Shown: positions 95 through 22,123, counted from the first letter of the stretch. The stretch: DNA of 50,000 nucleotides from a virus (IMGVR_UViG_3300020045_012733:1-50000); one strand, 5' to 3'. Made by a program: numbers and translations. The notes: a model not told the origin generated them from the letters alone.

Positions 95-162
95 AAAAAA
101 CCCTAAACGATTTCTTATGTCGGTTAGGGTTTTAAATTTCAATCATGGCTATTGCAAATGTA
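94..162 (-). ncRNA. Candidate small RNA (promoter, about 60 nt, intrinsic terminator)
   Basis: -7 box TACATTTG at 155-162, then hairpin ACCCTAA...TTAGGGT with a U-tract; no sizeable ORF. Confidence 0.45.
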
Positions 163-168
163 GAAATT

Positions 169-381: not shown

Positions 382-389
382 TTTTTTTA

Positions 390-919: not shown

Positions 920-1118
920 AATTTTGAATGGTTTCTTTTATTTTTTTATACTCGTTTATTTTGTCTTTAATTTCATCGTTTTGCTCCAACTCTTGCAACG
1001 CTTCAATTATTCCAAAAATATGCAATACGCTTAATCTAATAGCGTGTTTTCTTGTAATCATTCGACCACTTAACCAAAATGTATTGAAAATATCTAATGC
1101 TTTTTCTTGAATGTCCAT
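906..1118 (-). CDS. Hypothetical phage protein
   Basis: 70-aa ORF abutting the upstream gene. Confidence 0.75.
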   Translation of the reverse strand: MDIQEKALDIFNTFWLSGRMITRKHAIRLSVLHIFGIIEALQELEQNDEIKDKINEYKKIKETIQNFDKK

Positions 1119-2621
1119 TTATTTAAGTTTTTCTGATAATTCATTTTTAAACACTTCAACTATTTCATCAATAGTAATTAATCCAATTTCAAAAGCATTA
1201 TTAATATCATCAACTGATAAATCTTCATCTTCTTTTCTATCGTAATACAAAAGGTCTGAAACTAAATCTTTAACATTATCAATAATCATTAGTTTTGTTG
1301 CAGTTTCTTCTGTTGAAAACTCTTTATTATCATTTTTAGGTTCAAAACTAATTGTACTCTCTAAATCTTCTTTTGCTTCTTTGTCAAAGTCTGAATGCAT
1401 TTCTGCTCCTTCTTCTTTTACTGCAATTCCGTTTCCTAAATCTCTAACAAAACAGTTTTCTGGAATATCAACAACTTCTGCATTTTCAATTTCTTTAACT
1501 GATATTTTAACATCATTTAAATCATTTTCAACAACATCTAAATCATTAACATTTTCATCATTTACTTCAACTTCTTTTGGTTCTGCTTTGTTCCAATCTT
1601 CAATTTCTTTTTTAAAGTATTCAACTTTATCATTAAATTCTAAATCCGTTAAGTTATTCAATTCATCGAATGTTATTTTAACTAATATAACATCTGTATC
1701 AGTTGCGTAAATCCAACTTTTTAAGGCATCGTTTCCAAATAAACCTATTAATTCAATTGCTTTTTTTCTAAAGTAGAATTTAGCACATTTTAATTCAATT
1801 GCATAATCTTCAATAGAAAGTTCCCCAAGTGCTTTTTCTCCTTTGTATTTATAATCGTAATCAAACAACTCGCTCATTCTTTCATTAGTCAGTTTTGCAA
1901 CTTCTAAAGCTCTATTTGATTCTTGTAAATCTTTTTCAGTTGTTAAAGTTCTAATTAAAGTATCGAAATCCTCTGATTTTTCATCAACCATTGATCTATA
2001 AACTAATTCATAATCTTGTAAATCAATTGTTTTATCGGCTATTGAATTATCGTAAACTGATAAAATAGCATTAAATTGCTTTTCGTTTTCTTCAATATCT
2101 GAAAACTCTTTTGTTGAATCAATTATGCTTTGTAAATCAGTAGCAACTACATCAACTATTTTTTGAAGTTTTTCTTTTCGTTCGTTTTCTTTGTTTTCCT
2201 TTTCTAATCTTTCGTTTTCACGTCTTTTATCCTCGCTTTCTAAACGATTTGTAATTTTAGTTTCAATTGGTTCAACTATCAAAGTTAACTCATCTTTGAC
2301 TACTTTACTGCTTTTAGATGCTTGAGCTAAAACCGAACTATTATGTTTTGTGATTTTATCAAGTGCTATTCTCGGTTCTTTATGAATTTGTCTTAATTCT
2401 TTTAAACGAGTTTCTTCTTTTGTGGTTAACTTTTCCTTTGCAATAAGCTCATCAATTTCTTTTGAATGCTTTTTTACTAATGCGGTCAAATTCTTTTTAA
2501 CGTTTGCCTTTGTGAATGAAATCAAAACTCCTTCACTTTCTTTTAAAACCTCGTTAATTGGTTTCTGTTGTAATGCAATTTCTTTTGTTGCAAATCCCTC
2601 AATTTTTAATAATTCTGCCAT
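1119..2621 (-). CDS. Coiled-coil acidic phage protein (DUF1351-like N-terminus, tentative)
   Basis: 500 aa, E/K-rich heptads. Confidence 0.6.
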   Translation of the reverse strand: MAELLKIEGFATKEIALQQKPINEVLKESEGVLISFTKANVKKNLTALVKKHSKEIDELIAKEKLTTKEETRLKELRQIHKEPRIALDKITKHNSSVLAQASKSSKVVKDELTLIVEPIETKITNRLESEDKRRENERLEKENKENERKEKLQKIVDVVATDLQSIIDSTKEFSDIEENEKQFNAILSVYDNSIADKTIDLQDYELVYRSMVDEKSEDFDTLIRTLTTEKDLQESNRALEVAKLTNERMSELFDYDYKYKGEKALGELSIEDYAIELKCAKFYFRKKAIELIGLFGNDALKSWIYATDTDVILVKITFDELNNLTDLEFNDKVEYFKKEIEDWNKAEPKEVEVNDENVNDLDVVENDLNDVKISVKEIENAEVVDIPENCFVRDLGNGIAVKEEGAEMHSDFDKEAKEDLESTISFEPKNDNKEFSTEETATKLMIIDNVKDLVSDLLYYDRKEDEDLSVDDINNAFEIGLITIDEIVEVFKNELSEKLK

Positions 2622-2637
2622 AATTTCTAATTTGTTT

Positions 2638-2916
2638 TTAATGAATGTATCTTTTTGTTTTTGTGAATCTTATTTGTTTTTCTTTTTCGATGCAACTTGC
2701 TATAGCTTTTATTGTATTTATTAAAATTTCAATTATTTTCTTTTGCCTGTCTATTTTGTTTTCAAAAATAGTACTATTAATTATTGAAATCTGAATTGAT
2801 GAAGTTGAAGTAATAAGGATTAATTTTTGTTTTAGAAAAGAAATATATTTTCTTTTTTGTCTTAATATTTTTGGCTTTTTATTCTTATGAATCGAATAAT
2901 AATTTACTTTTCCCAT
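2638..2916 (-). CDS. Hypothetical basic protein
   Basis: 92-aa ORF overlapping the upstream gene. Confidence 0.55.
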   Translation of the reverse strand: MGKVNYYSIHKNKKPKILRQKRKYISFLKQKLILITSTSSIQISIINSTIFENKIDRQKKIIEILINTIKAIASCIEKEKQIRFTKTKRYIH

Positions 2917-3206
2917 TCTGGTAGTTGTTCAAGTGTTAAAAAATTTAGTTTTGAATCTCTAATGTGCCAAGTAACATGATGTACTATTGTTTGAATGTTT
3001 TTGTTTATTATGTCTGCTTTGTAAATTTCTTGATTGAAATTTCTAATTTGTGTAAATTGATTAAAATCGTACCAATGACAACCACTACTGCCTATTTTCT
3101 CTGGAATTAAAGATAGTTTTTCTGCTCTATTTCTAACTTTTTTATGACTTATTCCTAAAATAGTGGCAATATCATTAACGTTGTATCTTTTGGTATTTCC
3201 TTTCAT
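2904..3206 (-). CDS. DNA-binding HTH protein (excisionase/MerR-like)
   Basis: YNVNDIATILGISHKKVRNRA. Confidence 0.6.
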   Translation of the reverse strand: MKGNTKRYNVNDIATILGISHKKVRNRAEKLSLIPEKIGSSGCHWYDFNQFTQIRNFNQEIYKADIINKNIQTIVHHVTWHIRDSKLNFLTLEQLPEWEK

Positions 3207-3210
3207 TTTA

Positions 3211-3462
3211 CTACAAATTTGGTTTATAATTTTTTCTAATAACCGTATGTACTTTATTGGATAAATCTTGAAAATAAGTAGAACTTTTTACTTATGGAAT
3301 ATCGATTAAAGCGTTGTTAACTTCTTCACAACTATTTGTTAGTAAATCTTTGTAAGTAATAGCTTCTTTTGATGTTGGTTGTAACTCATCCAAAACTTCT
3401 AAAGTTAAGTTTGACAATACAACTAACAAATGGCATAACTCGGATTTTCTTTTTGGGTTCAT
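3211..3462 (-). pseudogene. Hypothetical gene interrupted by an in-frame TAA at 3292-3294
   Basis: The frame continues VKSSTYFQDLSNKVHTVIRKNYKPNL to TAG at 3211, 4 nt before the next ATG at 3206. Confidence 0.55.
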
Positions 3463-3761
3463 TTTAAATGATGTTTTATACAATCTTGTTTGTTTTCAAA
3501 TATTAAATCTTGACCTTTCAATTTTAAGTCGATTTTAAGGACTTTTGCAATTCTTACGGCTTGACTTCTGTCTTTTTGTATTATCATAAATCCTGCGCAT
3601 TGTTTTCGCTCTTTTAGAGTGCCTTTTGTAGTTTTATGACAAACGAAACTATCACTTTCTAATATTTCAGTCATTCGCTCCGAACCTAACCAACCTTTTA
3701 AACTATCCTTACGAAAAGGACAATCTTTACAAGGTGTTTGAATTATTGGCAATTTGCTCAT
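3459..3761 (-). CDS. Cys-rich phage protein (DUF6283-like); probable start 3761
   Basis: PCKDCPFRKD...FVCHKT...QCAG motifs. Confidence 0.65.
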   Translation of the reverse strand: MSKLPIIQTPCKDCPFRKDSLKGWLGSERMTEILESDSFVCHKTTKGTLKERKQCAGFMIIQKDRSQAVRIAKVLKIDLKLKGQDLIFENKQDCIKHHLK

Positions 3762-4230
3762 TGATGAAATTTTGTAAATCTGGTTCTTTGTATTTTTTAA
3801 CTTCTTCAATCCATTCTGAACTACAATGAATATCGTCATGTTGCAATCCATTTCCTAACCAACTTCTACTACGTTTTACTTTTTCAATTGTGTATGGAAT
3901 TGGTATTTTAATTTCTTGTAATACTTCTGTTTTTACTTTTCTGTATTTATCGTTTTTACGAATGAATTTTAGTTTAGGTAAAATGTAGAAATATTCTTTT
4001 TCAATAATTAAAGTGTTTGTTTTTGTTTTTATTTTAGTTTTTACTTTTGATTGAATTGGATTAATTCCTTTTACCAAATCTTCAATTAAACTTGAAACTT
4101 TTAAACCTTTTTCTAAAAGCCAATTATAATAATTTTTATCTGTTTGAATTATATATTGTAATTCTTTGCCTTGATATTTTCCAAACGTTAAAATATCATT
4201 AGGAAAATTAATTGTTTTATTGATACTCAT
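3727..4230 (-). CDS. Protein with N-terminal FGKY domain (DUF3820/exonuclease X C-terminal-like)
   Basis: LTFGKYQGKELQYI...YYNWLLE. Confidence 0.6.
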   Translation of the reverse strand: MSINKTINFPNDILTFGKYQGKELQYIIQTDKNYYNWLLEKGLKVSSLIEDLVKGINPIQSKVKTKIKTKTNTLIIEKEYFYILPKLKFIRKNDKYRKVKTEVLQEIKIPIPYTIEKVKRSRSWLGNGLQHDDIHCSSEWIEEVKKYKEPDLQNFINEQIANNSNTL

Positions 4231-4664: not shown

Positions 4665-6224
4665 TTATAGTTTAAATTTTTGAATTATTGCAGCAAGTAC
4701 TCCAACACAAATTGAATTTCCTGCTTGTTTGTAAAGTTGACTATCTGATATTAATTTAGATTCGATTGTTTTGTCAATCATTTCCAGATTAAAGTCCATC
4801 AAATTAAAACATTCTCTTGGAGTTAATCTGCGGATTCTTTGAGTTATCATTGCATTTCTTTTTACCGATGCAATATACTCATCACTTGAACCTGCTCTAC
4901 CAATTGCGTTAGTAATACAACCCGCTATGTTTTCATCTACTTGCAAATTTTCTAATTTTTCAAGTTGTTGCTTTGAAAGTTTTTTTGTAACAATACCTTG
5001 ATTACATTGCGTATCTAAAGTTTGACTTACTTTTTTACCAACTCGACCTCGCCTTGTTTTACTACTTGGAACACTGAAATTTATTGAATCTTCTTCTTCT
5101 GCTTGGTCAAAGCCTTTTGAGTTGTTTGTGGATATTTTAATTACATTCATTCCTGAGCCATCTTCTCTTGCTCTTGCTAAAATAGTAGGCGAAACTCCGT
5201 CTTCTAATTCTTGAAAACCTTTTTTATTACCATTTTCGTCTTTAAAATCATTCCATTTTCCAATTTTAACATGATGCATATTAGCTGAACTAATAGTTGT
5301 TAAAATACTTGGAGAAACTTCGGTACGTGTTGTTTTGTTATAACTATCAATTATACAATCTTCATCCGGAATATCTTTTGTATTTAAAGTTTCATTTAGT
5401 CGCTTGTTTCCAAAATTAGCTTGAATTTTAAAAAACTCTTGGTCTGTTGACATTTTGTGTTGGTTTGCTAAAACACAATTTGCTATGTTTTTTTCTGTTG
5501 GATTTGTAAAAGGCAAACTTCTTGGTGCTTTTTGAAGATAATCAATCATTTTATCACTCAAAAAGTACTTTTCATCAACTTCACTTTCTAATACGTCTTT
5601 CAATCTTTTTTCTAATGGAAATGGCTTTGGAAATTGAAAGTCATTATCTTCATCATCACGAATACCAATGATAAAAATACGTTCTCTATTTTGAGGAACT
5701 CCAAAATCTTTGGCATTTATAACTTGAAAATAAATGTGATACGGAACAGAATCTTCGTAAGGGAAAAACGTATGCACTCCATTAACCGATTTACCTCCTA
5801 AATAGTTTATCCATTCCTGAAACGTTCTGCCAAATTCTGCATTTTTATCAACTTTGTCGTGTGAAAGCAATCCTTTTACATTCTCGAAAATAAAGTATCT
5901 TGGCTTGTTAATTTGAATAAATTCCAATGAATTAAAAAACAATATACCTCGTTTATCTTCTTTGCCTAAGCGTTTTCCTGCTAAACTAAATGATTGGCAA
6001 GGAGGCGATGTCATATAAATATCTAAACTTTCACTTGGTATTTCACGCTCGTAAACATCTTTAGGAAAATACTTTGGAGTGCCAAAATTTAACTCAAATG
6101 TTTGCCTTGCGTACTTATCCATATCACAAGCAAATAATTCATCGTATTCAATTCCTAAACGAATCAACGCTTGGTTAAATGCTCCTACTCCAGAAAAATC
6201 TGAACCTACTTTTATTTTTTTCAT
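4665..6224 (-). CDS. C5-cytosine DNA methyltransferase with long variable region
   Basis: Motif I DFSGVG, motif IV PPCQSFS, ENV, QNRERIF, C-terminal RRLTPREC and YKQAGNS. Confidence 0.95.
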   Translation of the reverse strand: MKKIKVGSDFSGVGAFNQALIRLGIEYDELFACDMDKYARQTFELNFGTPKYFPKDVYEREIPSESLDIYMTSPPCQSFSLAGKRLGKEDKRGILFFNSLEFIQINKPRYFIFENVKGLLSHDKVDKNAEFGRTFQEWINYLGGKSVNGVHTFFPYEDSVPYHIYFQVINAKDFGVPQNRERIFIIGIRDDEDNDFQFPKPFPLEKRLKDVLESEVDEKYFLSDKMIDYLQKAPRSLPFTNPTEKNIANCVLANQHKMSTDQEFFKIQANFGNKRLNETLNTKDIPDEDCIIDSYNKTTRTEVSPSILTTISSANMHHVKIGKWNDFKDENGNKKGFQELEDGVSPTILARAREDGSGMNVIKISTNNSKGFDQAEEEDSINFSVPSSKTRRGRVGKKVSQTLDTQCNQGIVTKKLSKQQLEKLENLQVDENIAGCITNAIGRAGSSDEYIASVKRNAMITQRIRRLTPRECFNLMDFNLEMIDKTIESKLISDSQLYKQAGNSICVGVLAAIIQKFKL

Positions 6225-9281: not shown

Positions 9282-11492
9282 TTAAAATAGTGTTAATGTT
9301 GCGTTTTTTTCTGAAACAAAATCTTTATGATTTTTTGAATTTAAAGCGAAATAACTTTCTTTAAGTTCAATTGATATTGATTTTCTATTCATTTTAATTG
9401 CACAACAACCCTCCGAACCAATGCCTCCAAATGGACTTAAAACTGTTTCTCCCTCGTTTGAATATAAATGTAAAATTCTTTCTATTGTATCTAACTGAAG
9501 CGGTGCAATGTGTTTTTCATCATTTCCATCACGTCCAGAACGATACTGCAAAGTTCTTGAATAATCAATATCATACCAAACTGGCGAAGCGTATTTTTGC
9601 CATAAATCAACAGGTAAATAATCTAATTTACTACTATCAATATCTTGATGCGTTATTGGAGTTTCATTTTCTCCCTCGTTTCTAAAAAATAAAATATAAT
9701 CTGGAATACCAACCCTTGACATAATACTATCTTTTTTGATAGTTTTATGAAGTAAACCTAATGCTTTTGTTCGTTGCATTTCTGTAACAGGATTTTTCCA
9801 TATTGTAGTTCTTGAATGATAAATAAATCCATTTTCTTCAAACCAATCAATTAACATTCCGCTGAAATCTCTTAATCCAATATATCCCTCTTTACCTTTT
9901 TGAATTGGTAAATCCATGCAATGAATAGCGCACATTCTACCACTTTTTAAAACTCTTTTTAATTCTGGAATAAGGAATTTAAAATGTTGCTCAAATTGTT
10001 TGTAGTCGCTTACATTTCCCATATCTTCCTCTTTATCTGAATAAACATAAAGCTCCGCAAATGGTGGAGAAAAAACTACAATATCTGCACAATTATCTGG
10101 CAACTTTTTTGTTTCTTGAACGCAATCTCCATTTATTAAATGATATTTTTCTGTTTTAATTTCTTTGTTCATAATTTTTACTTTTGATTTTGCTGTTTTA
10201 TAATTTGTTTCTGCTGAATATAAAGCCATTTCTTTGATTCTTTCAAAGTGTTGTTTTTCTTTTTCTAAAATAGTTTGTCTTACATTTGTTTGGCTTTCTG
10301 GAATAAGAATATGAACTACTACTTTGTTTTTTTGACCGAATCTATAACAACGTCTAACCGCTTGATAAAATGCTTCAAATTTAAAATCGTAACTCATAAA
10401 AACCATTTGACTACATTGCTGATAATTCATACCAAATGATGCAATTGATGTTTTTGTAATTAGTGTTTTAAATTCTTTGTTTGCAAATCCATTTAGATAC
10501 TTTGCTTTATATTCTGGTTTATCAGAACCTTGAACGTTAATTGAATCTGGAAGTAATTTTGCTAATGTATCAGTTTCTTGATTTTTTAATCCCCAAACAA
10601 TCCATTGATTATCATTTGAATTAACAAGTTCTAATGTTTTTTTAATACGTAAATCAAAACTTCTATTCAAATCTTTGTGTAATTCTGTTGCTGAAACTGC
10701 TACATCTCCAAATAGTGATTGACTTGTATTTTCAACTGGTATAATGTGTTCAACATATTCTATTTCTGGTAAATTGTAACCATCTGAATTAAATCCTAAA
10801 GTTGCAGGATTATCAATAGCAATACTCCAACTTGATACATATTTCCAGAACGCATCCTTTGCGTGTTTTCTTAATCTCCATTTTGAAGTTTCTCCTCCAT
10901 CATGAACAAAGAACATTGCTAACATTTCTAAATAACTCATTCCTCCTAAAAATTCAGAATGCTGTCCTAATTCCATATGGTCGTTTGGCGATGGTGTAGC
11001 TGTGCAACATAATTTATAAGGAGTGTTTTTAAATAAATCTAAAATCATTGATGAAATTTTGCCATCACGCCCTTTTAAAATAGAGCTTTCATCTAAAACA
11101 ACTCCAGAATATTTAGAAATATCAATGTTTTTTAATTGATCATAATTATTAATTTGATTTTCATTATTATCAGTTGCAAACCAATCTATTTTAATTCCAA
11201 ATTTTTTTCCCTCTTTTATTGTTTGTTCACAAATAGCTAATGGAGCTAACAATAATACTGGTTTTTTTGTTTTTGCTTTCACTTGCTTTGACCATTCTAA
11301 TTGACAAAATGTCTTACCAAGACCACAATCAAAAAATAATGCGAATTTTCCTTTTTGCAATGCTACTTTTACTCCAAATTTCTGAAAGTCTTTTAACTCT
11401 TTATTTAGTTTGTTTTCTGAAATTTCAAATCCACTTTCTATAAATGTTTTTCTTTTTGTTTCTAAAAATGATTCATAATCTAAATTAGCCAT
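9282..11492 (-). CDS. SF2 (SNF2-like) helicase fused to an N4-C/N6-A DNA methyltransferase
   Basis: DCGLGKT, LDESS, TAT, QAVRRCYRFGQ; then GDC, VFSPPF and LSPFGGIGS (beta-class order). Confidence 0.9.
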   Translation of the reverse strand: MANLDYESFLETKRKTFIESGFEISENKLNKELKDFQKFGVKVALQKGKFALFFDCGLGKTFCQLEWSKQVKAKTKKPVLLLAPLAICEQTIKEGKKFGIKIDWFATDNNENQINNYDQLKNIDISKYSGVVLDESSILKGRDGKISSMILDLFKNTPYKLCCTATPSPNDHMELGQHSEFLGGMSYLEMLAMFFVHDGGETSKWRLRKHAKDAFWKYVSSWSIAIDNPATLGFNSDGYNLPEIEYVEHIIPVENTSQSLFGDVAVSATELHKDLNRSFDLRIKKTLELVNSNDNQWIVWGLKNQETDTLAKLLPDSINVQGSDKPEYKAKYLNGFANKEFKTLITKTSIASFGMNYQQCSQMVFMSYDFKFEAFYQAVRRCYRFGQKNKVVVHILIPESQTNVRQTILEKEKQHFERIKEMALYSAETNYKTAKSKVKIMNKEIKTEKYHLINGDCVQETKKLPDNCADIVVFSPPFAELYVYSDKEEDMGNVSDYKQFEQHFKFLIPELKRVLKSGRMCAIHCMDLPIQKGKEGYIGLRDFSGMLIDWFEENGFIYHSRTTIWKNPVTEMQRTKALGLLHKTIKKDSIMSRVGIPDYILFFRNEGENETPITHQDIDSSKLDYLPVDLWQKYASPVWYDIDYSRTLQYRSGRDGNDEKHIAPLQLDTIERILHLYSNEGETVLSPFGGIGSEGCCAIKMNRKSISIELKESYFALNSKNHKDFVSEKNATLTLF

Positions 11493-12425: not shown

Positions 12426-12881
12426 TTACATATTTAGATAATCTAACATTGATTGAGTTGAAATAGTTTCTTTTGGTAAATTATCAATCATTTTTAATTT
12501 TTCTTTTTCTGCATCGGAACGCATGAAATTTCGAGCTGTGGCAATCCATCCTTTTGCAGTTCTTTTTTCGTTTGTTTTTGTCAAACTCCAATCTTTAACA
12601 GCATTAAAATAATATGAAATATCAACTCCCATTTGCTCAAATTGTAAAAATTCCTTCTCGAAAATTACCCAGTTTGAAACGTTTGATTTTTCAAAAGTAG
12701 TTTTTATTTCTGAACTTGTTTCAATGCTTCCAAATAAAGTGCCTTGAATTGGCTTCTTTTTCTTTGAATTACGATTATAAACTTGAATTGATACCTTTAC
12801 CATTGTTTGTAATTTTTTCAACTCATCAATCGTTAAATCAACTATTGAATCATTACTTAAATCTATTGTTACTTTTTTCAT
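12426..12881 (-). CDS. Hypothetical, replication-initiator C-terminal-like
   Basis: YYFNAVKDWS...GWIATARNFMRSD. Confidence 0.5.
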   Translation of the reverse strand: MKKVTIDLSNDSIVDLTIDELKKLQTMVKVSIQVYNRNSKKKKPIQGTLFGSIETSSEIKTTFEKSNVSNWVIFEKEFLQFEQMGVDISYYFNAVKDWSLTKTNEKRTAKGWIATARNFMRSDAEKEKLKMIDNLPKETISTQSMLDYLNM

Positions 12882-12884
12882 TTT

Positions 12885-13685
12885 TTAAATTGGTAAATTC
12901 ATTTTTTGCAATATTGCTGTCGATACGTGAGTATAAATTTCTGTTGTTTTGCTACTTGAATGTCCTAAATGCTTTTGAATAATTCTTAAATCTGTACCTG
13001 CTTCAAGTAATGCAGTTGCGTTTGAATGTCGTAATAAATGTATATGATATTCTTTACCAATATATTTTTTAACTATTTCATTACAACTCTTATGAGAATA
13101 TTGAAGTGCATTATTTTGACCATTAAAAACATATTCTTTAGGTCTATACTCTCTATGATAATCACGTAATAATTCAAGTACTTTCTCACTTAATGGAACT
13201 ATTCTATCTTTTCTTCCTTTAGATTGTCTAATTGTAATAATCATACGCTTACTATCAATATCGGATTGCTTTAAATTACAAACCTCACTTACTCTCATTC
13301 CTGTACTATAAACTAAAGTCAATAATGCTTTGTGCTTTTTATTCTCAATCTTTTCAAGTTGACTTAATAAAAATTCCTTTTCAATTATTTTAGGTAGTTT
13401 CTTTTCTGCTCTTGGACGTTCTATTTTATTTAAATGAATGTCTTTTTTATCTAAAATATATTTTGCAAATAATTTTAAACAACCAATAAATTGATTTTGT
13501 TGTGAAACAGATGTAAACTTTTTATGTTCTAAATAATCAATAATTGATTTTGTTGTAATTGAATACGGATCTTTACAATTTGTTTCTTTAAAATATTGAT
13601 AAAGCGTTTGTTTGTAAACTTTAATTGTATTTATTGAGTAATTTTTATATCTCAATTTATTTTCAAAAATTTCAAGAATCTTCAT
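12885..13685 (-). CDS. Tyrosine recombinase (integron-integrase-like, lacking the IntI-specific insertion)
   Basis: N-terminal SAM-like domain (YSINTIKVY), YSTGMRVSE, SKGRKDR, HLLRHSNAT, LGHSSSKTTEIY; adjacent to the cassette array. Confidence 0.92.
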   Translation of the reverse strand: MKILEIFENKLRYKNYSINTIKVYKQTLYQYFKETNCKDPYSITTKSIIDYLEHKKFTSVSQQNQFIGCLKLFAKYILDKKDIHLNKIERPRAEKKLPKIIEKEFLLSQLEKIENKKHKALLTLVYSTGMRVSEVCNLKQSDIDSKRMIITIRQSKGRKDRIVPLSEKVLELLRDYHREYRPKEYVFNGQNNALQYSHKSCNEIVKKYIGKEYHIHLLRHSNATALLEAGTDLRIIQKHLGHSSSKTTEIYTHVSTAILQKMNLPI

Positions 13686-13699
13686 GGCTTATATGTTTA

Positions 13700-13750
13700 T
13701 TTTATTAGTGTTAAGGTAGTGTGTTGGATATATAATAGTTATGTGTAATG
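13700..13750 (+). other. attI-like site, crossover G|TTATGTG at 13738
   Basis: First GTTA core, with no hairpin to its left, 53 bp from the integrase start; pairs with tacacataac at 14171-14180. Confidence 0.7.
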
Positions 13751-14143
13751 TTACAATTCCGTTTTTACAGAAACTTTTAAAACACACCACTTGTCATTTT
13801 TTTCTGAAAATTCATCAAATAAATCGTGCCCACCAATTCTTAAATAAGTATTATAGTCCGTTCCGTAAGTATAAGATGAATAATTGTAACTACTTGTTTC
13901 GTATTCTGCTGTAATTTCTCCAAACAATTTACCAAGCCATTTTTCAAGTATTTCTTCTTCTGTCTTTTTTTTATCAGATAAAAAATAACTAACTGAAACT
14001 TCACTTTCAAATAAGTCAAAAATCGCTCTAAACTTTTTCACAAGGTCAACGGTTTTACTTTCATCAATAAGTTTGATGGTTTTAAAATCTTCGCTCCAAT
14101 CAATTTTTATGAAGCCACTAAATGTAAATTCTTTTATTTCCAT
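13751..14143 (-). CDS. Cassette 1 hypothetical protein (likely start MEIKEF)
   Basis: ORF filling the 562-bp cassette. Confidence 0.8.
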   Translation of the reverse strand: MEIKEFTFSGFIKIDWSEDFKTIKLIDESKTVDLVKKFRAIFDLFESEVSVSYFLSDKKKTEEEILEKWLGKLFGEITAEYETSSYNYSSYTYGTDYNTYLRIGGHDLFDEFSEKNDKWCVLKVSVKTEL

Positions 14144-14176
14144 AAGGAATTTTGTTTTAAAAATCCACACTACACA

Positions 14177-14303
14177 TAACAGTAGTTTGTAGCAATGGCT
14201 TTATTAGTGTTTAATTTAATGTTTTGGCTTCTCTGTTATTATAGTTTTTAAACCGAAACTACTCGCTTACTTGCACGCCACTGCAACAAGCTACAAAACG
14301 TTA
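14177..14303 (+). repeat. attC-like site 1 (127 bp)
   Basis: TAACAGTAGTTTGTAGCAATGGC...GCCACTGCAACAAGCTACAAAACGTTA. Confidence 0.88.
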
Positions 14304-14312
14304 TAACCAATA

Positions 14313-14546
14313 CTACGGGATTAGAGTGGCTCTCCAACTTTGTGCTAACTTCTTATTTATTTCTTCTTTTGAAGTGTATAAATCGCAAGTATTGGTAATT
14401 ACTTTTTCATAATCTCGCTTTACACCATTATTAGCGTGGACTATTTTTTTGCCGTTTTCTTCTATAATATTAAAAACGTGTGTTTCTGCTCCCCATCCTA
14501 ATCCTTGATAGTATAGCACATCTCCTTTTTTTAAATCTTGTGTCAT
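14313..14546 (-). CDS. Cassette 2 hypothetical protein
   Basis: 77-aa ORF in the 385-bp cassette. Confidence 0.8.
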   Translation of the reverse strand: MTQDLKKGDVLYYQGLGWGAETHVFNIIEENGKKIVHANNGVKRDYEKVITNTCDLYTSKEEINKKLAQSWRATLIP

Positions 14547-14561
14547 AATAAGTACTGGTTA

Positions 14562-14688
14562 TAACAGTGGTTTTGCTCAATGGCTGTTTCAGGCAAAATT
14601 TCAGCACTGTTTTGTGTTTGTAAAATTTGTTTTTAATTCAATAATTTAGGCTTGCTTTTCAGCCACTAAGCAAAGCCACGGGACGTTA
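14562..14688 (+). repeat. attC-like site 2 (127 bp)
   Basis: TAACAGTGGTTTTGCTCAATGGCTG...CAGCCACTAAGCAAAGCCACGGGACGTTA. Confidence 0.88.
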
Positions 14689-14692
14689 ACCG

Positions 14693-14866
14693 CTATTTAA
14701 ACGGAACTCGGTGTATAACGAAATCCTTATACAAAATCGGAAACTTACACATCTTTAGTGAGTGATAAGGAAATTCTAAATCCTTACATAATTTTTTAAA
14801 ATTACCTCGCACAATTGGCGTGAGTGTGCAAGGTTGTATAGCAACTATTATATTTTTTCTTTGCAT
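14693..14866 (-). CDS. Cassette 3 ORF B, 57 aa (MQRKNIIVAI...HRVPFK)
   Basis: Hand-translated; below the ORF-track cutoff; starts 1 nt after the ORF A stop. Confidence 0.7.
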   Translation of the reverse strand: MQRKNIIVAIQPCTLTPIVRGNFKKLCKDLEFPYHSLKMCKFPILYKDFVIHRVPFK

Positions 14867-14867
14867 A

Positions 14868-15029
14868 TTAACTTATTATTTTAAATCCCCATCTTTTACA
14901 CATACATTTTACAACGTATTTTCTTTTATCTCCATCAATTTCTTCTCCTGTTTTAGCGTCAATAATCCAATAGAAACCACCCTCCCATAATTCAATTTTA
15001 ACTTCTCTTTTTGTTGTGTTTGCTTTCAT
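14868..15029 (-). CDS. Cassette 3 ORF A, 53 aa (MKANTTKREV...GFKIIS)
   Basis: Hand-translated; preceded by its own promoter. Confidence 0.7.
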   Translation of the reverse strand: MKANTTKREVKIELWEGGFYWIIDAKTGEEIDGDKRKYVVKCMCKRWGFKIIS

Positions 15030-15056
15030 AATTTCTATTTGTTTATTATTATGATG

Positions 15057-15087
15057 TAAATATACGACTTATTTTTATATACACAAA
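15057..15087 (-). promoter_or_regulatory. Cassette-internal Bacteroidota-type promoter
   Basis: TTTG-N19-TATATTTA, followed by CATCATA as in the duplicated phage promoter. Confidence 0.6.
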
Positions 15088-15140
15088 CTTTTTTGTAATT
15101 ATTTTTAAAATATTTATAATTCAGTAAAATAAACAGCGGT

Positions 15141-15214
15141 TAACAAGTGTTTTGCTCAATTGTGCCGAAAGTAGTTTGCGGTTAGGCACAACTGAAGCAA
15201 AGCACCATACGTTA
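15141..15214 (+). repeat. attC-like site 3 (short, 74 bp)
   Basis: TAACAAGTGTTTTGCTCAATTGTGCC...GGCACAACTGAAGCAAAGCACCATACGTTA. Confidence 0.85.
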
Positions 15215-15235
15215 TAGCCAATGCGGGAAGAAGTG

Positions 15236-15604
15236 CTAATCAGGCACCTCTTCGTTCAAATTATGACATTGTTCGCTTTGTAACAATTCTGCACTACTAT
15301 AATCAATGTATATTTTAGTATGAGGATTGTGATTTTTAAAAAGGTATCTAATTGCAGGCTCTACAGCTTTATCAAAGTCGCTTATATCTTGTTCAAAAGG
15401 ATTTTGAATACCTAATTGATTTGGCTGATTTTCTGGGTCAAATATTGTTTGGATTAGAGTTGTTATTTCCTCAGCAATAGAGGATATATCTTCTCCTTCT
15501 ATCGCTTGAAAAGAATCTCCTAACTCTCCACAAGAACCCCTGCCGTAACACGTTATAGTGTTATTGTTTAATAATTCGATAATTTGTTTTTTAATCTGTT
15601 CCAT
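15236..15604 (-). CDS. Cassette 4 hypothetical protein
   Basis: 122-aa ORF. Confidence 0.8.
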   Translation of the reverse strand: MEQIKKQIIELLNNNTITCYGRGSCGELGDSFQAIEGEDISSIAEEITTLIQTIFDPENQPNQLGIQNPFEQDISDFDKAVEPAIRYLFKNHNPHTKIYIDYSSAELLQSEQCHNLNEEVPD

Positions 15605-15654
15605 TTTTTATGTTTATTTAAAGTTAATATTTGTAGTTAAAAAGGCACTGGCTA

Positions 15655-15774
15655 TAACAGGTGTTTGGCAAAAAAGCCCTTCAGTATTTCTATTTGACAT
15701 TTGTACTAATTTTTAAGTTTTGTAATTCTATTGAACATTTGGTTAGGGCTTCTTCGCCAAGCACCCGACCGTTA
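15655..15774 (+). repeat. attC-like site 4 (120 bp)
   Basis: TAACAGGTGTTTGGCAAAAAAGCCCT...AGGGCTTCTTCGCCAAGCACCCGACCGTTA. Confidence 0.88.
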
Positions 15775-16050
15775 TAAGCAAGATTGCACAACTTCACGTC
15801 CAAATTTACCCGCTTGAATTATCAAACTTTTATCTGTGAATTGTTTTTTCTTATCACTTATAGTTCTTCCGAAATATCTTCCTTTAAAAATAAACTCAAA
15901 AGTTGTTATTCTTGGTTCGTCATAAAAAGTAACTACACCTTCTTTGAATACATACTTTCCTTTTCTATGTTCATATTCAGTTCCTTTTTTTATTACATCA
16001 CAATTACCATAAGGTTTTCCAATTGCAAAATCTGAATCAAATTTTTTCAT
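15772..16050 (-). CDS. Cassette 5 hypothetical protein
   Basis: 92 aa; its stop codon is the TTA of the GTTA core. Confidence 0.8.
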   Translation of the reverse strand: MKKFDSDFAIGKPYGNCDVIKKGTEYEHRKGKYVFKEGVVTFYDEPRITTFEFIFKGRYFGRTISDKKKQFTDKSLIIQAGKFGREVVQSCL

Positions 16051-16065
16051 AATAAATCCTGCTTA

Positions 16066-16187
16066 TAACAGTTGTTTGGCACTATTGCCGTTTAGTTTTT
16101 CAGCGGAAAATACTCTGCTGATATTAATTTTAGTTTTCATAAGTTCGTTCACGTTATCGGCAACAGATGCCAAGCAACATACCGTTA
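16066..16187 (+). repeat. attC-like site 5 (122 bp)
   Basis: TAACAGTTGTTTGGCACTATTGCCG...CGGCAACAGATGCCAAGCAACATACCGTTA. Confidence 0.88.
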
Positions 16188-16196
16188 TGGTAAATG

Positions 16197-16712
16197 CTAA
16201 AAAGACGTTTCCGATAAAAGTTTATCTAAATTATCTAAAGCTTTTTTGTATTTCTCTTTGGCTTTATTTAAAGCTTCAATCTTAAATTCTTTTTTTCTTT
16301 TATTAGATATTTCTAATAATTCGTTATAAAAATCAGGTTCTGATTCCCACAACTTTAATATATGTTTTATTTTTTCATCAGTAAAGCTTTCTTCTTTTTC
16401 ATTATTAAACCAATCTAAAGCACATTCTTTTTTTGTTAAATAAAAACTGCTTAGTGGTCTATGAAGTTGTGAGTGTCCTTTTGTAAAATGAGATAAACAA
16501 TTTCCAAATGAAACTTTTGCATCTACATTTCCACTTTTCTCCATTAACTCTAAACTAAAATGAATAGCTTGCAGTTGATTTTTAATATCTCCTTCATCAT
16601 AAAAAGGTGTTACGGCAAAAGTTTCGTCACTATACAAATCGCTTTCAATTACTAAAATTATTTTTCTACCTCTTTTTTCAGCTCTTGTTACTTTTACATT
16701 TATTGGTTTCAT
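16197..16712 (-). CDS. Cassette 6 hypothetical protein (likely start MKPINV)
   Basis: ORF filling the 679-bp cassette. Confidence 0.8.
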   Translation of the reverse strand: MKPINVKVTRAEKRGRKIILVIESDLYSDETFAVTPFYDEGDIKNQLQAIHFSLELMEKSGNVDAKVSFGNCLSHFTKGHSQLHRPLSSFYLTKKECALDWFNNEKEESFTDEKIKHILKLWESEPDFYNELLEISNKRKKEFKIEALNKAKEKYKKALDNLDKLLSETSF

Positions 16713-16739
16713 ATTTTTTTGTTTTAAAAGCACTTACCA

Positions 16740-16866
16740 TAACACTGCATTGTAGCAATTGTGGTTTTAGGCTTAATTAATAATTTATTTTGTACTTGTT
16801 TTGGTTAGTTTTTAATATAAACATTGTGTCAGTCAAACCACAACTGACTACAATGCTTTAACGTTA
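16740..16866 (+). repeat. attC-like site 6 (127 bp)
   Basis: TAACACTGCATTGTAGCAATTGTGGTTT...AAACCACAACTGACTACAATGCTTTAACGTTA. Confidence 0.88.
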
Positions 16867-16875
16867 GCAGTAACC

Positions 16876-17307
16876 TTACGCAGACACACCAAGTTTTTGT
16901 AGTTTAGAAATTAACATTTTTCTTTTCTCTTGTTTTTCACAAAGAAGAATGCCTAATATTTGAAGTGTTGCATTTTCAGACAATGAATTATTTAAAGTAT
17001 GTTCATTATCATTTTTCTTTTTCGTTTCTGAACACCCAAAAGAAAACAATGGCATTGATAACGAGTGTAGCATTCTTTTATGAATATCCTCATAATTATT
17101 TCTAACAATGCTGCCATCTTCATCAAAAGAATTTTTTTGAGAATCCTCATTTTTTTTGCCAATATCTTCAATTTTTAATTCAAATGTTGACTTTATTTCA
17201 CCATTGGCAACTAACATAGCTATTCTATCAATATCTATAATTTCTTTGTCAAGTGCTTGAATATCCTTGTAGATAATTGTTGCTTTTTCTAATTGTTTAA
17301 ATTCCAT
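16876..17307 (-). CDS. Cassette 7 hypothetical protein
   Basis: 143-aa ORF. Confidence 0.8.
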   Translation of the reverse strand: MEFKQLEKATIIYKDIQALDKEIIDIDRIAMLVANGEIKSTFELKIEDIGKKNEDSQKNSFDEDGSIVRNNYEDIHKRMLHSLSMPLFSFGCSETKKKNDNEHTLNNSLSENATLQILGILLCEKQEKRKMLISKLQKLGVSA

Positions 17308-17349
17308 TTTTAATATTTATTTTGTACGACTGACCAAAAAGGCTACTGC

Positions 17350-17475
17350 TAACATCGGTTTTGCAATAGTTGGGCAGACGTGGTTAATTGAACTTTTTTA
17401 CTTCTATTTAGCTTTGTGCAAGGGTTGAACATTTCGTTTCCAAATTCCCAACCATCGCAAAGCCGTTTTCCGTTA
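17350..17475 (+). repeat. attC-like site 7 (126 bp)
   Basis: TAACATCGGTTTTGCAATAGTTGGG...CCCAACCATCGCAAAGCCGTTTTCCGTTA. Confidence 0.88.
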
Positions 17476-17484
17476 GACGATAGC

Positions 17485-17709
17485 TTACTCGGGAATCTTA
17501 AGCCACTTCACAATTTCTCTATCAATAGAATAATCTTCGTTATCGTACCATTCTTTAAAATGACTTCCATCCATAGTTCCTTCATAAAGTCGAGCGACCA
17601 TTTTTCTGCCAATATCATCAACAACTAATACTTCATCGCTTCTTTTTCCATCCCAAACGCCAGTTTCATAAGTTATTGGCGTTGCATTTTCGGTGTAATT
17701 CCATTCCAT
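17485..17709 (-). CDS. Cassette 8 protein (DUF551-like)
   Basis: MEW...SDEVLV...VARL...W...IVKWLKIPE. Confidence 0.75.
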   Translation of the reverse strand: MEWNYTENATPITYETGVWDGKRSDEVLVVDDIGRKMVARLYEGTMDGSHFKEWYDNEDYSIDREIVKWLKIPE

Positions 17710-17737
17710 AATTTTTTACTTTTTAAAAGCCATCGTC

Positions 17738-17868
17738 TAACAAGTGTTTTCTGCTATGGCTTGGTTATGGTTTTTCCTTCGGAAAAACCGCTGTTGACTT
17801 TAATCTTGTTTTTGTGTTTTGGTGGCTTGGTGCTTATTTCCGCCACAGACAGAAAGCACCAAACGTTA
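17738..17868 (+). repeat. attC-like site 8 (131 bp)
   Basis: TAACAAGTGTTTTCTGCTATGGC...GCCACAGACAGAAAGCACCAAACGTTA. Confidence 0.88.
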
Positions 17869-17877
17869 TGTGCAAGG

Positions 17878-18150
17878 CTAACTGACCGCTTCGTAAGTAG
17901 CTTCAAATATTGACTTTTCGACAAGCCACCTTTCGCCATTAATGCCAACACAAACGTAATGCTTGCCAAATTCGCCTCTATGTTTTTGATTTTCCAAAGT
18001 AGCTATATATGGTACTAAATCAGGTTGTATTCCATATTTAGCATCTTCCATAGCTCCAAGCATACCGTCACGGTAAACAAAACCATCTTCATCACCTTTT
18101 TCAAATAATTTAGCCTTTACTGTGGCTGTCTTTCTGTACTCTTTAAACAT
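17878..18150 (-). CDS. Cassette 9 protein (widespread phage YRK..V.A...NGE.W...IFE.TYE family)
   Basis: EYRKTATVKA...GINGERWLVEKSIFEATYE. Confidence 0.7.
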   Translation of the reverse strand: MFKEYRKTATVKAKLFEKGDEDGFVYRDGMLGAMEDAKYGIQPDLVPYIATLENQKHRGEFGKHYVCVGINGERWLVEKSIFEATYEAVS

Positions 18151-18192
18151 CGTTTTCAAATTAAATTTAGTGCTGATAAACCGCCCAGCACA

Positions 18193-18318
18193 TAACAGCG
18201 GTTTGTAGCAAAAAGGGTTGACGTGCTACATTCGTCATTTGTGGTTCTAATCAGCAGTAGTGCAAGGTTGAAACTGTGTGCTTCTAAATCCCTTTCAGCT
18301 ACAAGCCGCAAAACGTTA
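18193..18318 (+). repeat. attC-like site 9 (126 bp)
   Basis: TAACAGCGGTTTGTAGCAAAAAGGG...CCCTTTCAGCTACAAGCCGCAAAACGTTA; the final TTA is the exonuclease stop codon. Confidence 0.88.
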
Positions 18319-19185
18319 ATCTATTTTTAAAAGTAGGCAAATTTCATCTTGTTTGTATTTAAATTGTTCTGCATTTTCTAAAAACAATTCATAATCATTA
18401 GAAGATAAATCCATAATTGCATCAAATATTCTTACTCTTTTTTCTAAAAATAATTTATCTGCAATTGGTACTTCAAATCTGATTGTATTTATTTCTTCAT
18501 ATCCGCTTTCTTTTAAAATAAATGGTAATTGTCCAGGACGTGCAAAAGCTACTTTATAACTTGATTCTGGTAAATTATCATTGTATTTTATAATTTCTTC
18601 AAGTGTTTTAAAATATGGCATAAATATAATTAATTCTGCATATTTAGTTCCAAAAATACAAGCATTACTTACTAATTGCCAATAAAATTTCTTACCATCT
18701 TTTGCTTTATCAATTAATTTTGATAATGCTTTTTTCATATCCGGATTGTCAATTTTCTTAACTCCTCCTTCTGGTAATTCCTCATATAAACCGCTTACTA
18801 ATTGACAAAATGCTTTTTTAGTCAAAGGACATTTAATGTCTGTAATAGCATCTAATACTAATTTTTTAAGAATTACTTTGTATTTTGAACCATCTGGAGT
18901 ACCTACCCAAACAGGATATTTTGGATGTTGTTTTGTATCGCTTGAATGAAACTTATAATCTTTTGGTAATTTCTTATGTGCAAAACTTTCAACTAATTTG
19001 CCCCATTCAGTTGCTAATACTTCAACTTCACTTTCTAAACTTTGAAGTAAACATTTTTCATATCTACATTCTTCTACATAAGTAAAAAATGGACTTCCTA
19101 TTGAGTTTGCAATTCTACCTTCTGAAACTAAAGATACAATTGAACTTGAATTAGCTGTTGATATTCTTATATTTGATAAAGCCAT
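18316..19185 (-). CDS. YqaJ/lambda-exonuclease-like recombination exonuclease
   Basis: EWGKLVE, GTPDG, DIKCP, FYWQ (PD-(D/E)xK pattern). Confidence 0.85.
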   Translation of the reverse strand: MALSNIRISTANSSSIVSLVSEGRIANSIGSPFFTYVEECRYEKCLLQSLESEVEVLATEWGKLVESFAHKKLPKDYKFHSSDTKQHPKYPVWVGTPDGSKYKVILKKLVLDAITDIKCPLTKKAFCQLVSGLYEELPEGGVKKIDNPDMKKALSKLIDKAKDGKKFYWQLVSNACIFGTKYAELIIFMPYFKTLEEIIKYNDNLPESSYKVAFARPGQLPFILKESGYEEINTIRFEVPIADKLFLEKRVRIFDAIMDLSSNDYELFLENAEQFKYKQDEICLLLKID

Positions 19186-21990: not shown

Positions 21991-22046
21991 TTTTTTATAA
22001 TTTTAATTATTAATAATGCCAAATATAGCAATTTTTTTGAATAAAC

Positions 22047-22123
22047 AAAAAAAAGTCATCCAAATTAACGAATGACTTTTCCAACTAAACCAATTTATTA
22101 AATCTTATACCGATTCAAATATA
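22047..22123 (-). ncRNA. Candidate small RNA
   Basis: -7 TATATTTG at 22116-22123, U-rich body, terminator AAAGTCAT...ATGACTTTTTTT. Confidence 0.45.

Follow-up and report, generated by a model that had tools for sequence, protein, structure and literature searches.

The window, i.e. the 50,000-nt stretch of viral DNA analysed here, carries nine gene cassettes stacked next to a tyrosine recombinase gene, and this ensemble is quite likely a gene-cassette system of the phage, functioning in the manner of an integron without being made from integron parts. The initial annotation had read it as an integron-like array. The cassette-boundary signature, the polarity, the hairpin-less site and the differences between phages by whole units agree with that reading, but the enzyme is not an integron integrase and the cassette genes are inverted.

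The positions of the array elements are listed in Table 1. Ten GTTA sites delimit the nine units, and recomputation reproduced the unit lengths, the announced 74-131 bp range of the hairpins, and indeed all coordinates and numbers given in the initial annotation. The core site G↓TTATGTG at 13738 (the arrow marks the crossover) has no hairpin, and 53 bp separate it from position 13685, where the recombinase gene starts. All cassette ORFs of the window read towards the recombinase, and a covariance model built from the nine hairpins had 9 matches in the whole 50-kb genome, all inside the array. The proposal that the array sits in a replication/recombination operon could not be established, the flanking genes having no Pfam family and their PHROGs being of unknown function.

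Table 1. Features of the cassette array. The last nucleotide of each cassette, and 13738 for the attI-like site, is the crossover G of G↓TTA (10 in all). Hairpin spans run from TAAC to GTTA. Matches are the number, out of 6, of variable bases after GTTA that are complementary to those before TAAC, in the same unit or within the hairpin.
Feature	Position	Strand	Length (bp)	ORF(s) and remarks	Hairpin	Span (nt)	Same-unit match	Within-hairpin match
Xer-like tyrosine recombinase	12885-13685	-		ORF of 266 aa; Pfam PF00589 4.1e-37, PF13495 3.6e-10				
attI-like hairpin-less site, recombinase-proximal half	13686..13738	-		inverse core of cassette 1 ends here				
Cassette 1	13739..14300	-	562	~13751-14143/14170	14177-14303	127	6	2
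Cassette 2	14301..14685	-	385	14313-14546 (77 aa)	14562-14688	127	6	1
Cassette 3	14686..15211	-	526	14693-14866 (57 aa), 14868-15029 (53 aa); leader	15141-15214 (short)	74	6	1
Cassette 4	15212..15771	-	560	15236-15604 (122 aa)	15655-15774	120	6	4
Cassette 5	15772..16184	-	413	15772-16050 (92 aa)	16066-16187	122	6	2
Cassette 6	16185..16863	-	679	16197-16715/16733 (172-178 aa)	16740-16866	127	6	1
Cassette 7	16864..17472	-	609	16876-17307 (143 aa)	17350-17475	126	6	2
Cassette 8	17473..17865	-	393	17485-17709 (74 aa)	17738-17868	131	6	1
Cassette 9	17866..18315	-	450	17878-18159 (93 aa)	18193-18318	126	5	1
Distal half of ancestral attI-like site	18316..18325	-		TTA serves as stop codon for gene 18316-19185, upstream				

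The bases following each GTTA had been claimed to complement those preceding the TAAC of the same unit, rather than those of the hairpin in which they sit. Such complementarity was found in 9/9 units, while matching within hairpins was at the chance level, 1.5 of 6 bases being expected. When 10 bases are taken from each G, a perfect reverse complement lies before the TAAC of the own unit in 8/9 units, and in the ninth it covers nine bases. By chance, a perfect 6-mer match would arise in roughly 1 in 4096 units, and the same-unit matching observed is far above this. In the all-against-all flank matrix, the bases at 18316..18325 had no inverse partner anywhere in the array (best match, at most 3 of 6).

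The stems show covariation: across the nine hairpins, 84.7% of the cells are paired, as against at most 49% in slid controls, and both sides have changed in 11/21 pairs. The hairpin includes an asymmetric internal loop, with 5 nt facing 1 nt, and conserved non-Watson-Crick positions. Folding energies of single sequences only modestly beat those of shuffles (z = +0.22 to -3.43), and the two ends of hairpin 8 do not pair with each other in its minimum-energy fold.

That the gene next to the array encodes a tyrosine recombinase was borne out by its PF00589 domain, the only match to this family in the 50-kb record, and by the presence of the catalytic motifs (R131, K156/K159, H216-x-x-R219, H242 and Y251). 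Its best NCBIfam match is the XerA-type equivalog NF040815, at 192.3 bits, below the cut-off of 220. Its best structural relatives by sequence are XerA/XerC-like structures (4A8E, 8.1e-36, and 5HXY), which align with it end to end. The integron-integrase models TIGR02249 and PRK15417 score 150.5 bits (cut-off 265) and 107.5 bits (cut-off 435), and each of them matches in 2 stretches. The alignment with VchIntIA (2A3V) also splits, into query residues 12-175 and 209-255, with 33 query residues facing 80 IntI residues, and the IntI-specific insertion is absent from the recombinase in the PDB-structure alignments. Classical IntI needs this insertion to read attC. As far as sequence comparison goes, the recombinase is Xer-like, and not an integron integrase.

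Searching with the covariance model, as the initial annotation had suggested, revealed hairpin arrays upstream of related recombinases. Among 80 IMG/VR viral loci whose recombinases are 49-84% identical to that of the window, 219 same-strand hairpins are located upstream, versus 1 downstream. At least one hairpin was present in 56 of the 67 loci having at least 1 kb of upstream sequence, and 11/67 had no match to the model. The flank rule (5 or 6 of 6 bases complementary) holds for 149/168 neighbouring hairpin pairs and fails in 19/168, to be compared with 7/230 within hairpins and 196/5000 in random pairs. Genes are in sense orientation in 125/129 classifiable segments. Homologues of 2/10 cassette ORFs of the window occupy different positions in other arrays, which suggests an exchange of cargo. 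The 57-aa ORF of cassette 3 is about 60% identical to ORFs of other arrays, and the ORF of cassette 4 shares 60% identity with one that precedes the recombinase gene of locus L011. Only the recombinase and the hairpins are common to the window phage and the nearest recombinase loci. This linkage points to the recombinase as the enzyme that would move the cassettes.

In the window, the crossover of the attI-like site is placed between 13738 and 13739, the sense strand reading TAA↓C then TATTATATAT. A conserved attI-like motif is found 52-89 nt before the recombinase start in 60/77 loci, versus 14/1600 random 100-nt windows; it has a TAA box and no clear inverted second arm. The tag of the last hairpin recurs as an inverse core in 51/55 loci, and in about 32 of those 51 the distance from the recurring core to the recombinase start is 53-79 nt, with the conserved motif after the core. 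At array ends, the same box is found in sites that have no hairpin. A conserved site exactly at the boundary of the last cassette is hard to explain unless the recombinase uses that site.

At the scale of the whole module, presence and absence were seen among the relatives of the window phage itself. In the closest contig of the same backbone (L179), whose flanking proteins are 80-86% identical, the whole module is absent, and 2 nt connect one flanking gene to the other. The other relative has an unrelated filler, and no cassette-level polymorphism was found for the window phage among these two relatives. In these comparisons, the recombinase is gained or lost jointly with the array.

Varying cassette content, another expectation of the initial annotation, was observed among cultured Flavobacterium phages. 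These carry 10-15 model hairpins each (100 hairpins in eight loci), and differ by whole units made of a hairpin and its downstream gene: 6/6 insertions or deletions read from their maps are blocks of a hairpin plus the segment downstream of it. Several different hairpins can follow the same segment cluster, as in eight clusters, but a choice of hairpins upstream is seen in only two; one cluster (S6) is found behind two unrelated hairpins. The megablast match between the window and these phages, 15020-15214, comprises hairpin 3, which is 96-100% identical in them, and its leader, and ends at GTTA. To judge from these maps, the hairpin travels upstream of its gene, opposite to classical cassettes. 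Genes of integron cassettes are read away from attI, and have attC at their 3' end. No recombinase homologue was present in the array-bearing cultured phages (0/2 genomes), and none at least 50% identical was found in 50,697 GenBank phage records. In the array-bearing cultured phages, the enzyme must thus act in trans, or another process moves the units.

On the coding (minus) strand, each cassette is organized as an imperfect hairpin of 74-131 nt, 1-2 small genes, a 6-nt tag and TAA, the tag pairing with the 6 nt located just after the hairpin of the same cassette. Owing to this pairing, a free circular cassette would close its hairpin with a 10-bp stem. We propose that the recombinase would bind the folded single strand, on which this 10-bp stem and the next 12-bp stem may serve as the arms of a core site of Xer type, with the asymmetric 5-nt/1-nt loop between them. 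The cut would be made inside the invariant TAAC, at TAA↓C by analogy with integrons, a position that sequence cannot fix. One strand would then be exchanged, the partner being either the attI-like site or a second hairpin, and replication would resolve the product; the nine cassettes would have been stacked in this way at the attI-like site. No recombination product was seen in the public runs, which consist of contigs, cover mainly the hairpins and contain at most 13% of the sampled words. Cargo is co-oriented with the single transcription direction of the phage and with the recombinase, and read-through expression is probable. Since DNA methyltransferases are among the cargo of the cultured relatives, the likely use of the system would be the swapping of anti-restriction and other accessory genes.

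An unlikely alternative is that the cassettes are real, and are moved by a host Xer or by the recombinase of a chromosomal array, the phage recombinase serving lysogeny or dimer resolution; in the lysogeny variant, the phage would integrate into hairpin arrays of its host or at some other attB. The existence of cultured phages whose arrays vary and which have no recombinase homologue speaks for it, as do the resemblance of the protein to plain Xer and the location of some recombinase loci on contigs of 100-360 kb. Potential host enzymes are also common: the hairpin model matches in 53/61 sampled Flavobacterium genomes, and the array ends checked there carry recombinase homologues of 38-46% identity. 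However, this alternative fits poorly with the fixed polarity and adjacency of hairpins and recombinase (219 against 1), with the conserved site at the last cassette boundary in 60/77 loci, and with the joint gain and loss of recombinase and array.

Hairpins might also be regulatory stem-loops (terminators, or elements of RNA processing or stability), with units reshuffled by homologous recombination between similar hairpins, as was proposed for the promoter-stem-loop modules of T4-type phages. Located between genes of one long transcription unit, the hairpins would be transcribed, and unrelated cargo has hairpin families in common, hairpin 3 being nearly identical in cultured phages. In public metagenome contigs, hairpins are much better covered than cargo. 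But homologous exchange does not predict a 6-nt complementarity between hairpins in the absence of pairing within hairpins, and hairpin-less sites with the same box are present at array ends. On the coding strand, no hairpin has the score of an intrinsic terminator; the terminator-like sites, 5 for 2.1 expected, are confined to the + (non-coding) strand. The array has no more promoter-like sites than chance would give, and no Bacteroidetes-type promoter consensus was found inside cassettes or array. Rfam gave no family match, the sole match (mir-140, 25.5 bits versus a gathering score of 70) being read as chance. This set of observations makes the regulatory explanation highly improbable.

Least probable of all is a classical integron or CALIN (attC cluster without integrase) derived from a bacterium and superficially divergent: integrons have the same G↓TT-type box and cassette signature, and the N-terminal PF13495 domain is also carried by integron integrases, but the IntI insertion is missing (33 residues versus 80 in VchIntIA), the integron-integrase models give scores of 150 (cut-off 265) and 107 (cut-off 435), and the cassette genes are inverted. 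Classical integron parts are present in 21 phages (Qi et al. 2023, PMC9892861), but almost no integrons were found in Bacteroidetes by IntegronFinder 2.0 (PMC9024848), and the main text of a screen of 10,705 phage genomes by IntegronFinder and HattCI does not mention Flavobacterium phages.

The preferred reading, a phage-borne cassette system, can be set against known systems. As in sedentary chromosomal integrons, e.g. the Vibrio cholerae superintegron, a tyrosine recombinase adjoins a hairpin-less primary site, stacked cassettes are bounded by imperfect hairpins, and hairpin families are common to unrelated cargo, mostly of unknown function. In both, the crossover falls in a GTT/AAC box, so that, for each inverse core, the other half sits on the same cassette. 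Unlike them, the window has a recombinase without IntI insertion and under the family cut-offs, a box made of invariant TAAC/GTTA plus 6 cassette-specific bases, an internal loop of 5 nt versus 1 nt and a hairpin upstream of its gene; the recombinase is downstream of the cargo and co-directional with it, and the carrier is a phage. Integration of the CTX phage at dif proceeds by Xer recombination on folded single-stranded DNA, and the window may resemble it in that a folded hairpin would mimic a two-arm core site for single-strand exchange; its sites, however, are cassette-borne, multiple and arrayed, in place of one dif-like site. XerA-type recombinases act at one dif-like duplex site, in which two inverted arms flank a spacer of 6-8 bp. 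The window protein differs from them by its score (192 versus the equivalog cut-off of 220), and a role in chromosome dimer resolution is not expected in a phage.

Our literature search found no description of this phage cassette system. Qi et al. 2023 (PMC9892861) already reported classical integron parts in phages, with cassette arrays in virulent and temperate phages and cargo including DNA methyltransferases. One of their cases is a Flavobacteriaceae phage, Polaribacter phage P12002L, in which our hairpin model has 0 matches. In the accessible part of that report, the phages have classical attC sites, detected by IntegronFinder/HattCI, and, at most, an IntI of bacterial type; a dedicated recombinase of phage type is not described there, and the 17 CALINs listed could include relatives of the present system.

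Chromosomal arrays of Bacteroidota, on which the same search found no paper for this hairpin family, have the hairpin family of the window, and homologous short recombinases at their ends. They differ in that these recombinases are only 38-48% identical to that of the window, and in the classical geometry of six loci (L098, L108, L109, L110, L119 and L137), with the recombinase first, hairpins on the opposite strand, and each gene followed by its hairpin. Genomes G014 and G048 have the phage-type placement.

We lean, with reserve, towards the view that all these arrays belong to a second integron-type gene-capture lineage, which would use a plain Xer-like recombinase without IntI insertion and its own class of folded sites. 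This lineage would be common to chromosomes of Flavobacterium and other Bacteroidota, in arrays of tens to hundreds of kilobases, and to their phages, in a flipped form where the hairpin heads the gene; it would trade anti-defence genes such as methyltransferases, with virulent phages borrowing the enzyme in trans. If this is true, anti-defence genes would be traded even across unrelated phage backbones.

The IMG/VR record comprises 50,000 bases, corresponds to the window in full and has a CheckV completeness of 100%. A large terminase, a portal protein and virion structural proteins were identified in it with PHROGs. All 63 gene-like ORFs of at least 90 aa lie on the minus strand, which was taken as the sense strand on the basis of this gene direction. 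The initial annotation had placed in this genome a tyrosine recombinase, a hairpin-less site at 13738 (hereafter named the attI-like site) and nine units, each with its own hairpin, and all coordinates and lengths were reproduced.

Coordinates of the recombinase gene and of the GTTA sites of the array
Feature	Position	Strand	Remark
Recombinase ORF	12885-13685	minus	266 aa
GTTA sites	13738, 14300, 14685, 15211, 15771, 16184, 16863, 17472, 17865, 18315		spacing equal to the nine unit lengths of the initial annotation

In eight of the nine units, the ten bases starting from the G have a perfect reverse complement directly before the TAAC of their own unit, and in the ninth unit nine bases do. When all ten sites were compared with all nine hairpin starts over the six variable nucleotides, same-unit matches were 6, 6, 6, 6, 6, 6, 6, 6 and 5 of 6, and matches within hairpins were 2, 1, 1, 4, 2, 1, 2, 1 and 1 of 6. 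The earlier statement that flanks are complementary within their own unit, and not within the hairpin in which they sit, thus holds for 9/9 units (eight at 6/6, one at 5/6), and the observation as such is confirmed. Site 18315 has no partner, and site 13738 has no hairpin. Together with the same-unit pairing, this is what is predicted if circular units were inserted one after another at a single hairpin-less site, whose two halves now lie at opposite ends of the array. The distal half of the attI-like site overlaps the stop codon of the upstream gene, and, by ORF coordinates, a stop codon is found at G+13 in six of the nine cassettes.

On the sense strand, the 5' part of a hairpin consists of six cassette-specific bases, TAAC, a G, four unpaired bases and a stem of roughly 12 bp whose fifth position is often a C/A mismatch; the 3' part consists of a variable interior, the returning stem, a single T, GTTA and six bases. 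Stems of the window hairpins covary: 84.7% of cells are paired, both sides are changed in 11 of 21 pairs, and slid controls do not exceed 49%. Among 231 hairpins of the family, four positions hardly vary: G behind TAAC in 227, T ahead of GTTA in 229, A at -7 in 227 and T at -15 in 226, and the matching stem position is a G-T pair in 8 of the 9 window hairpins. Folding energies of single hairpins were only modestly better than those of shuffled sequences (z from +0.22 to -3.43), and for hairpin 8 (numbering starts at the recombinase) the minimum-energy fold is a different one. No Rfam family matched the hairpins, and none of those in the window is terminator-like on the sense strand.

The window alone cannot fix the end at which hairpins are cut, because the flank rule (six nucleotides after a GTTA complement those before the TAAC of the same unit) is predicted by either end. 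Cultured Baltic Sea Flavobacterium phages, in which hairpin 3 is 96-100% identical (megablast), resolve this choice. Eight of their loci contain 100 hairpins, 10-15 per locus, all on the sense strand; no recombinase homologue was found in the two cultured-phage genomes searched. Hairpins and inter-hairpin segments were clustered, and each array was written as a string. A hairpin and its downstream segment form a block in all six array differences read from these maps (e.g. mumin6-1 versus mumin6-3, hattifnatt versus mumin, sniff versus the rest), and one such block occurs in three different contexts. More than one downstream hairpin was found for eight segment clusters, and more than one upstream hairpin for only two. 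Moreover, the stretch of the window that resembles mumin-type phages (15020-15214, megablast) comprises hairpin 3 and the leader and ends at GTTA, and the 57-aa ORF of cassette 3 has a homologue behind the same hairpin type in mumin-type phages.

By the maps, the segment clusters and the end of the similarity, the unit consists of a hairpin together with the gene or genes that follow, and the cut falls within the sense-strand TAAC; by analogy with integrons, the bond would be TAA|C. A cut at the other hairpin end, which would place each hairpin after its gene as in classical cassettes, was rejected on account of the cultured-phage maps, the similarity end at 15214 and the position of the hairpin-less site. 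One exception to the block rule was found: segment cluster S6, a three-ORF segment, stands behind two unrelated hairpins, one of 74 nt in mumin-type phages and one of 71 nt in hattifnatt, sniff and lillamy (cultured-phage arrays L003 and L084-L086 compared with L002, L088 and L089). Two variants of the 74-nt hairpin are the same apart from roughly the first nine bases. S6 and these variants suggest that exchange occasionally takes place within hairpins or at their other end. With a unit made of a hairpin and what follows it, cultured relatives differ by whole units; varying cassette content in related phages is what the initial annotation had proposed to look for. The leader between hairpin 3 and the first ORF (15020-15140) is 83-85% identical to a cassette leader of cultured Flavobacterium phages; the ORFs that follow have only about 60% identity or are different, for a hairpin at 96-100%.

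A scan of IMG/VR with the recombinase yielded 80 loci, at 49-84% identity, in which the covariance model built from the nine window hairpins detected about 240 further hairpins. This model was used in place of a pattern scan, discarded for its false positives. The hairpin set is the union of three model searches with differing match lists, 35 matches coming from the first, with E up to 1. Window hairpin 9 escaped the model in multi-source searches run with default filters; a direct search of the genome recovered it at 108 bits, and all nine matches in this genome fall within the array. Relative to the recombinase and its strand, 219 hairpins of the union lie upstream versus 1 downstream. At least one hairpin is present in 56 of the 67 loci having at least 1 kb of upstream sequence.

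The flank rule, at 5 or 6 of 6 bases, holds for 149 of 168 neighbouring pairs, the corresponding counts being 7 of 230 inside hairpins and 196 of 5000 for randomly drawn pairs. Judging from the sequence after several inverse cores, some of the 19 failures are hairpins overlooked by the model. The tag of the last hairpin recurs as inverse core in 51 of 55 loci and, in about 32 of these 51, 53-79 nt separate this core from the recombinase start downstream, and TATTATATAT, or a sequence close to it, comes next after the core. In degenerate form, this attI-like motif was found in 60 of 77 loci versus 14 of 1600 random 100-nt windows, including in loci without model-detected hairpins.

The recombinase, the only tyrosine recombinase of the window genome, contains Pfam domains PF00589 and PF13495, and the catalytic motifs are present. 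Its best NCBIfam model is a XerA-type family (192 bits, cut-off 220); integron-integrase models gave 150 (cut-off 265) and 107 (cut-off 435), each match being in two stretches. The protein can be aligned over its full length with XerA-type recombinases of solved structure, and its alignment to VchIntIA splits: the 80 residues containing the IntI-specific segment face 33 of the query. By its best score, its full-length alignment and this gap, the enzyme is Xer-like and fails the test that defines an integron integrase. Linkage strongly implies that this enzyme would carry out the recombination. An 'integron-like' recombinase subgroup with an incompletely conserved insertion has been described (Smyshlyaev et al. 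2021).

In a classical integron cassette, the gene comes first and attC last, and genes are read away from the integrase, whereas in the phage array the hairpin comes first and genes are read towards the recombinase. Sense orientation was found for 125 of the 129 classifiable segments across the family. Six bacterial loci with 40-48% identical recombinases have the classical geometry (recombinase first, hairpins on the opposite strand, gene then hairpin), and the phage geometry is seen in bacterial loci whose recombinases are 58-66% identical. The reading of the array as integron-like cassettes is supported once two points are corrected: the enzyme is Xer-like, not IntI, and the gene orientation is reversed.

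According to the main text of Qi et al. 2023 (PMC9892861), where Flavobacterium is not mentioned, a screen of 10,705 phage genomes with IntegronFinder and HattCI found 3 complete integrons, one In0 and 17 CALINs, and five phage attC sites were recombined by IntI1. As the model had 0 matches at E up to 1 in Polaribacter phage P12002L, which has a published CALIN, no link between the family and the published IntI1 assays was obtained. A passage of the IntegronFinder 2.0 article (PMC9024848) describes integrons as nearly absent from Bacteroidetes. Full-text literature searches, which for Qi et al. 2023 and Nilsson et al. 2020 covered the main text, gave no description of this cassette system.

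Loci with the most similar recombinases have nothing else in common with this phage except hairpins (tblastx). A search with the upstream flanking gene gave two contigs of the same backbone, L179 and L180. In L179, the closest of the same-backbone contigs, the genes that flank the module, at 80-86% protein identity to those of the window, abut (stop codon, two bases, start codon; 5940-5975), the 5.4-kb module is absent, and the model search found no hairpin. In L180, the module position (2886-3526) is occupied by about 640 bp of unrelated sequence with small ORFs, again with no hairpin in the model search. The absence of the module from L179, and the fact that the nearest recombinase loci share only recombinase and hairpins, show that recombinase and array are gained or lost as a block and are present in unrelated phage backbones. 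Both ends of the window module (12879-12887 and 18316-18320) lie on TAA stops, the recombinase's own and that of the upstream gene.

On the host side, the model had matches at E <=1e-6 in 53 of 61 sampled genomes from the genus of Flavobacterium urumqiense, with up to at least 53 matches per genome. Recombinase homologues of 36-46% identity were found in five Flavobacterium genomes, in four of them within a few kb of a hairpin cluster, placement being classical in two and phage-type in two. Flavobacterium hairpin clusters span tens to about 200 kb beside a 38-46% identical recombinase (G014:C1:885182-1088231 and G038:C1:3736017-3762985, in two genomes), and both placements are seen on chromosomes, with the recombinase before or after the array and hairpins on the same or the opposite strand. 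Polaribacter phages Freya_1 to Freya_10 (GenBank MT732463-MT732472), ten isolates of one phage, encode an integrase of 35% identity; its offset ranges from 98 to 4195, and the records are 43,978 to 48,920 bases long. These records differ in length in the part that precedes the integrase, which may reflect either cassette units or different record starts.

None of the 10 window cassette ORFs had a Pfam match above cut-off, and a DUF551-like assignment of cassette 8 was not borne out by Pfam. With PHROGs, 3 of the 10 had weak matches, to families whose function is unknown, and a protein atlas look-up of two gave nothing usable. Two of these ORFs have homologues in other arrays, at other positions. 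Units of the cultured phages include several DNA methyltransferases and an HTH regulator. In the main text of Nilsson et al. 2020 (PMC7077304), which is without the words hairpin, cassette and integrase, methyltransferase content is linked to plating efficiency in cultured relatives. Outside the window array are a 736-aa fusion of a SNF2-type helicase and an N6/N4 DNA methylase (9282-11492) and a 519-aa DNA methyltransferase (phrog_116, 4665-6224). For gene 18316-19185, Pfam gave no match and the PHROG assignment is to a family of unknown function; the label exonuclease was not adopted.

Sigma-70-like sites were at chance level (26 versus 27.9 expected), and the Bacteroidetes promoter consensus occurred 0 times in the array and 5 times in the whole window, versus 6.0 expected. 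As the cassettes contain no promoter consensus, expression by read-through from the phage operon is likeliest. The nearest exact Bacteroidetes consensus (TTTG, 18 nt, TAnnTTTG) upstream of the array operon is at 22020-22049 on the minus strand, for a window-wide count at chance.

No public sequencing run found contains more than 13% of the sampled words, and the contigs of four runs cover mostly hairpins. Over the recombinase, one contig of 4,040 nt has about 94% identity, and it stops being similar 11 nt past the first crossover; the contig joints listed have unknown letters between their two sides. In wastewater, digester and other metagenome contigs (runs X1, X5, X6 and X7; 12800-18400), hairpins are at high summed depth and most cargo genes at zero. 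The hairpin families are far more widespread than the cargo of this phage.

Integrons are defined by IntI. A working cassette system on a plain Xer-like enzyme, if true, would mean that folded sites can also be recombined by a route other than the IntI insertion. There would then be a gene-capture platform proper to a major aquatic phylum and its phages, overlooked by current tools, and one that cultured Flavobacterium phages make testable at the bench. Such a system would provide a concrete mechanism for hypervariable early-gene regions and for the quick turnover of anti-restriction genes.
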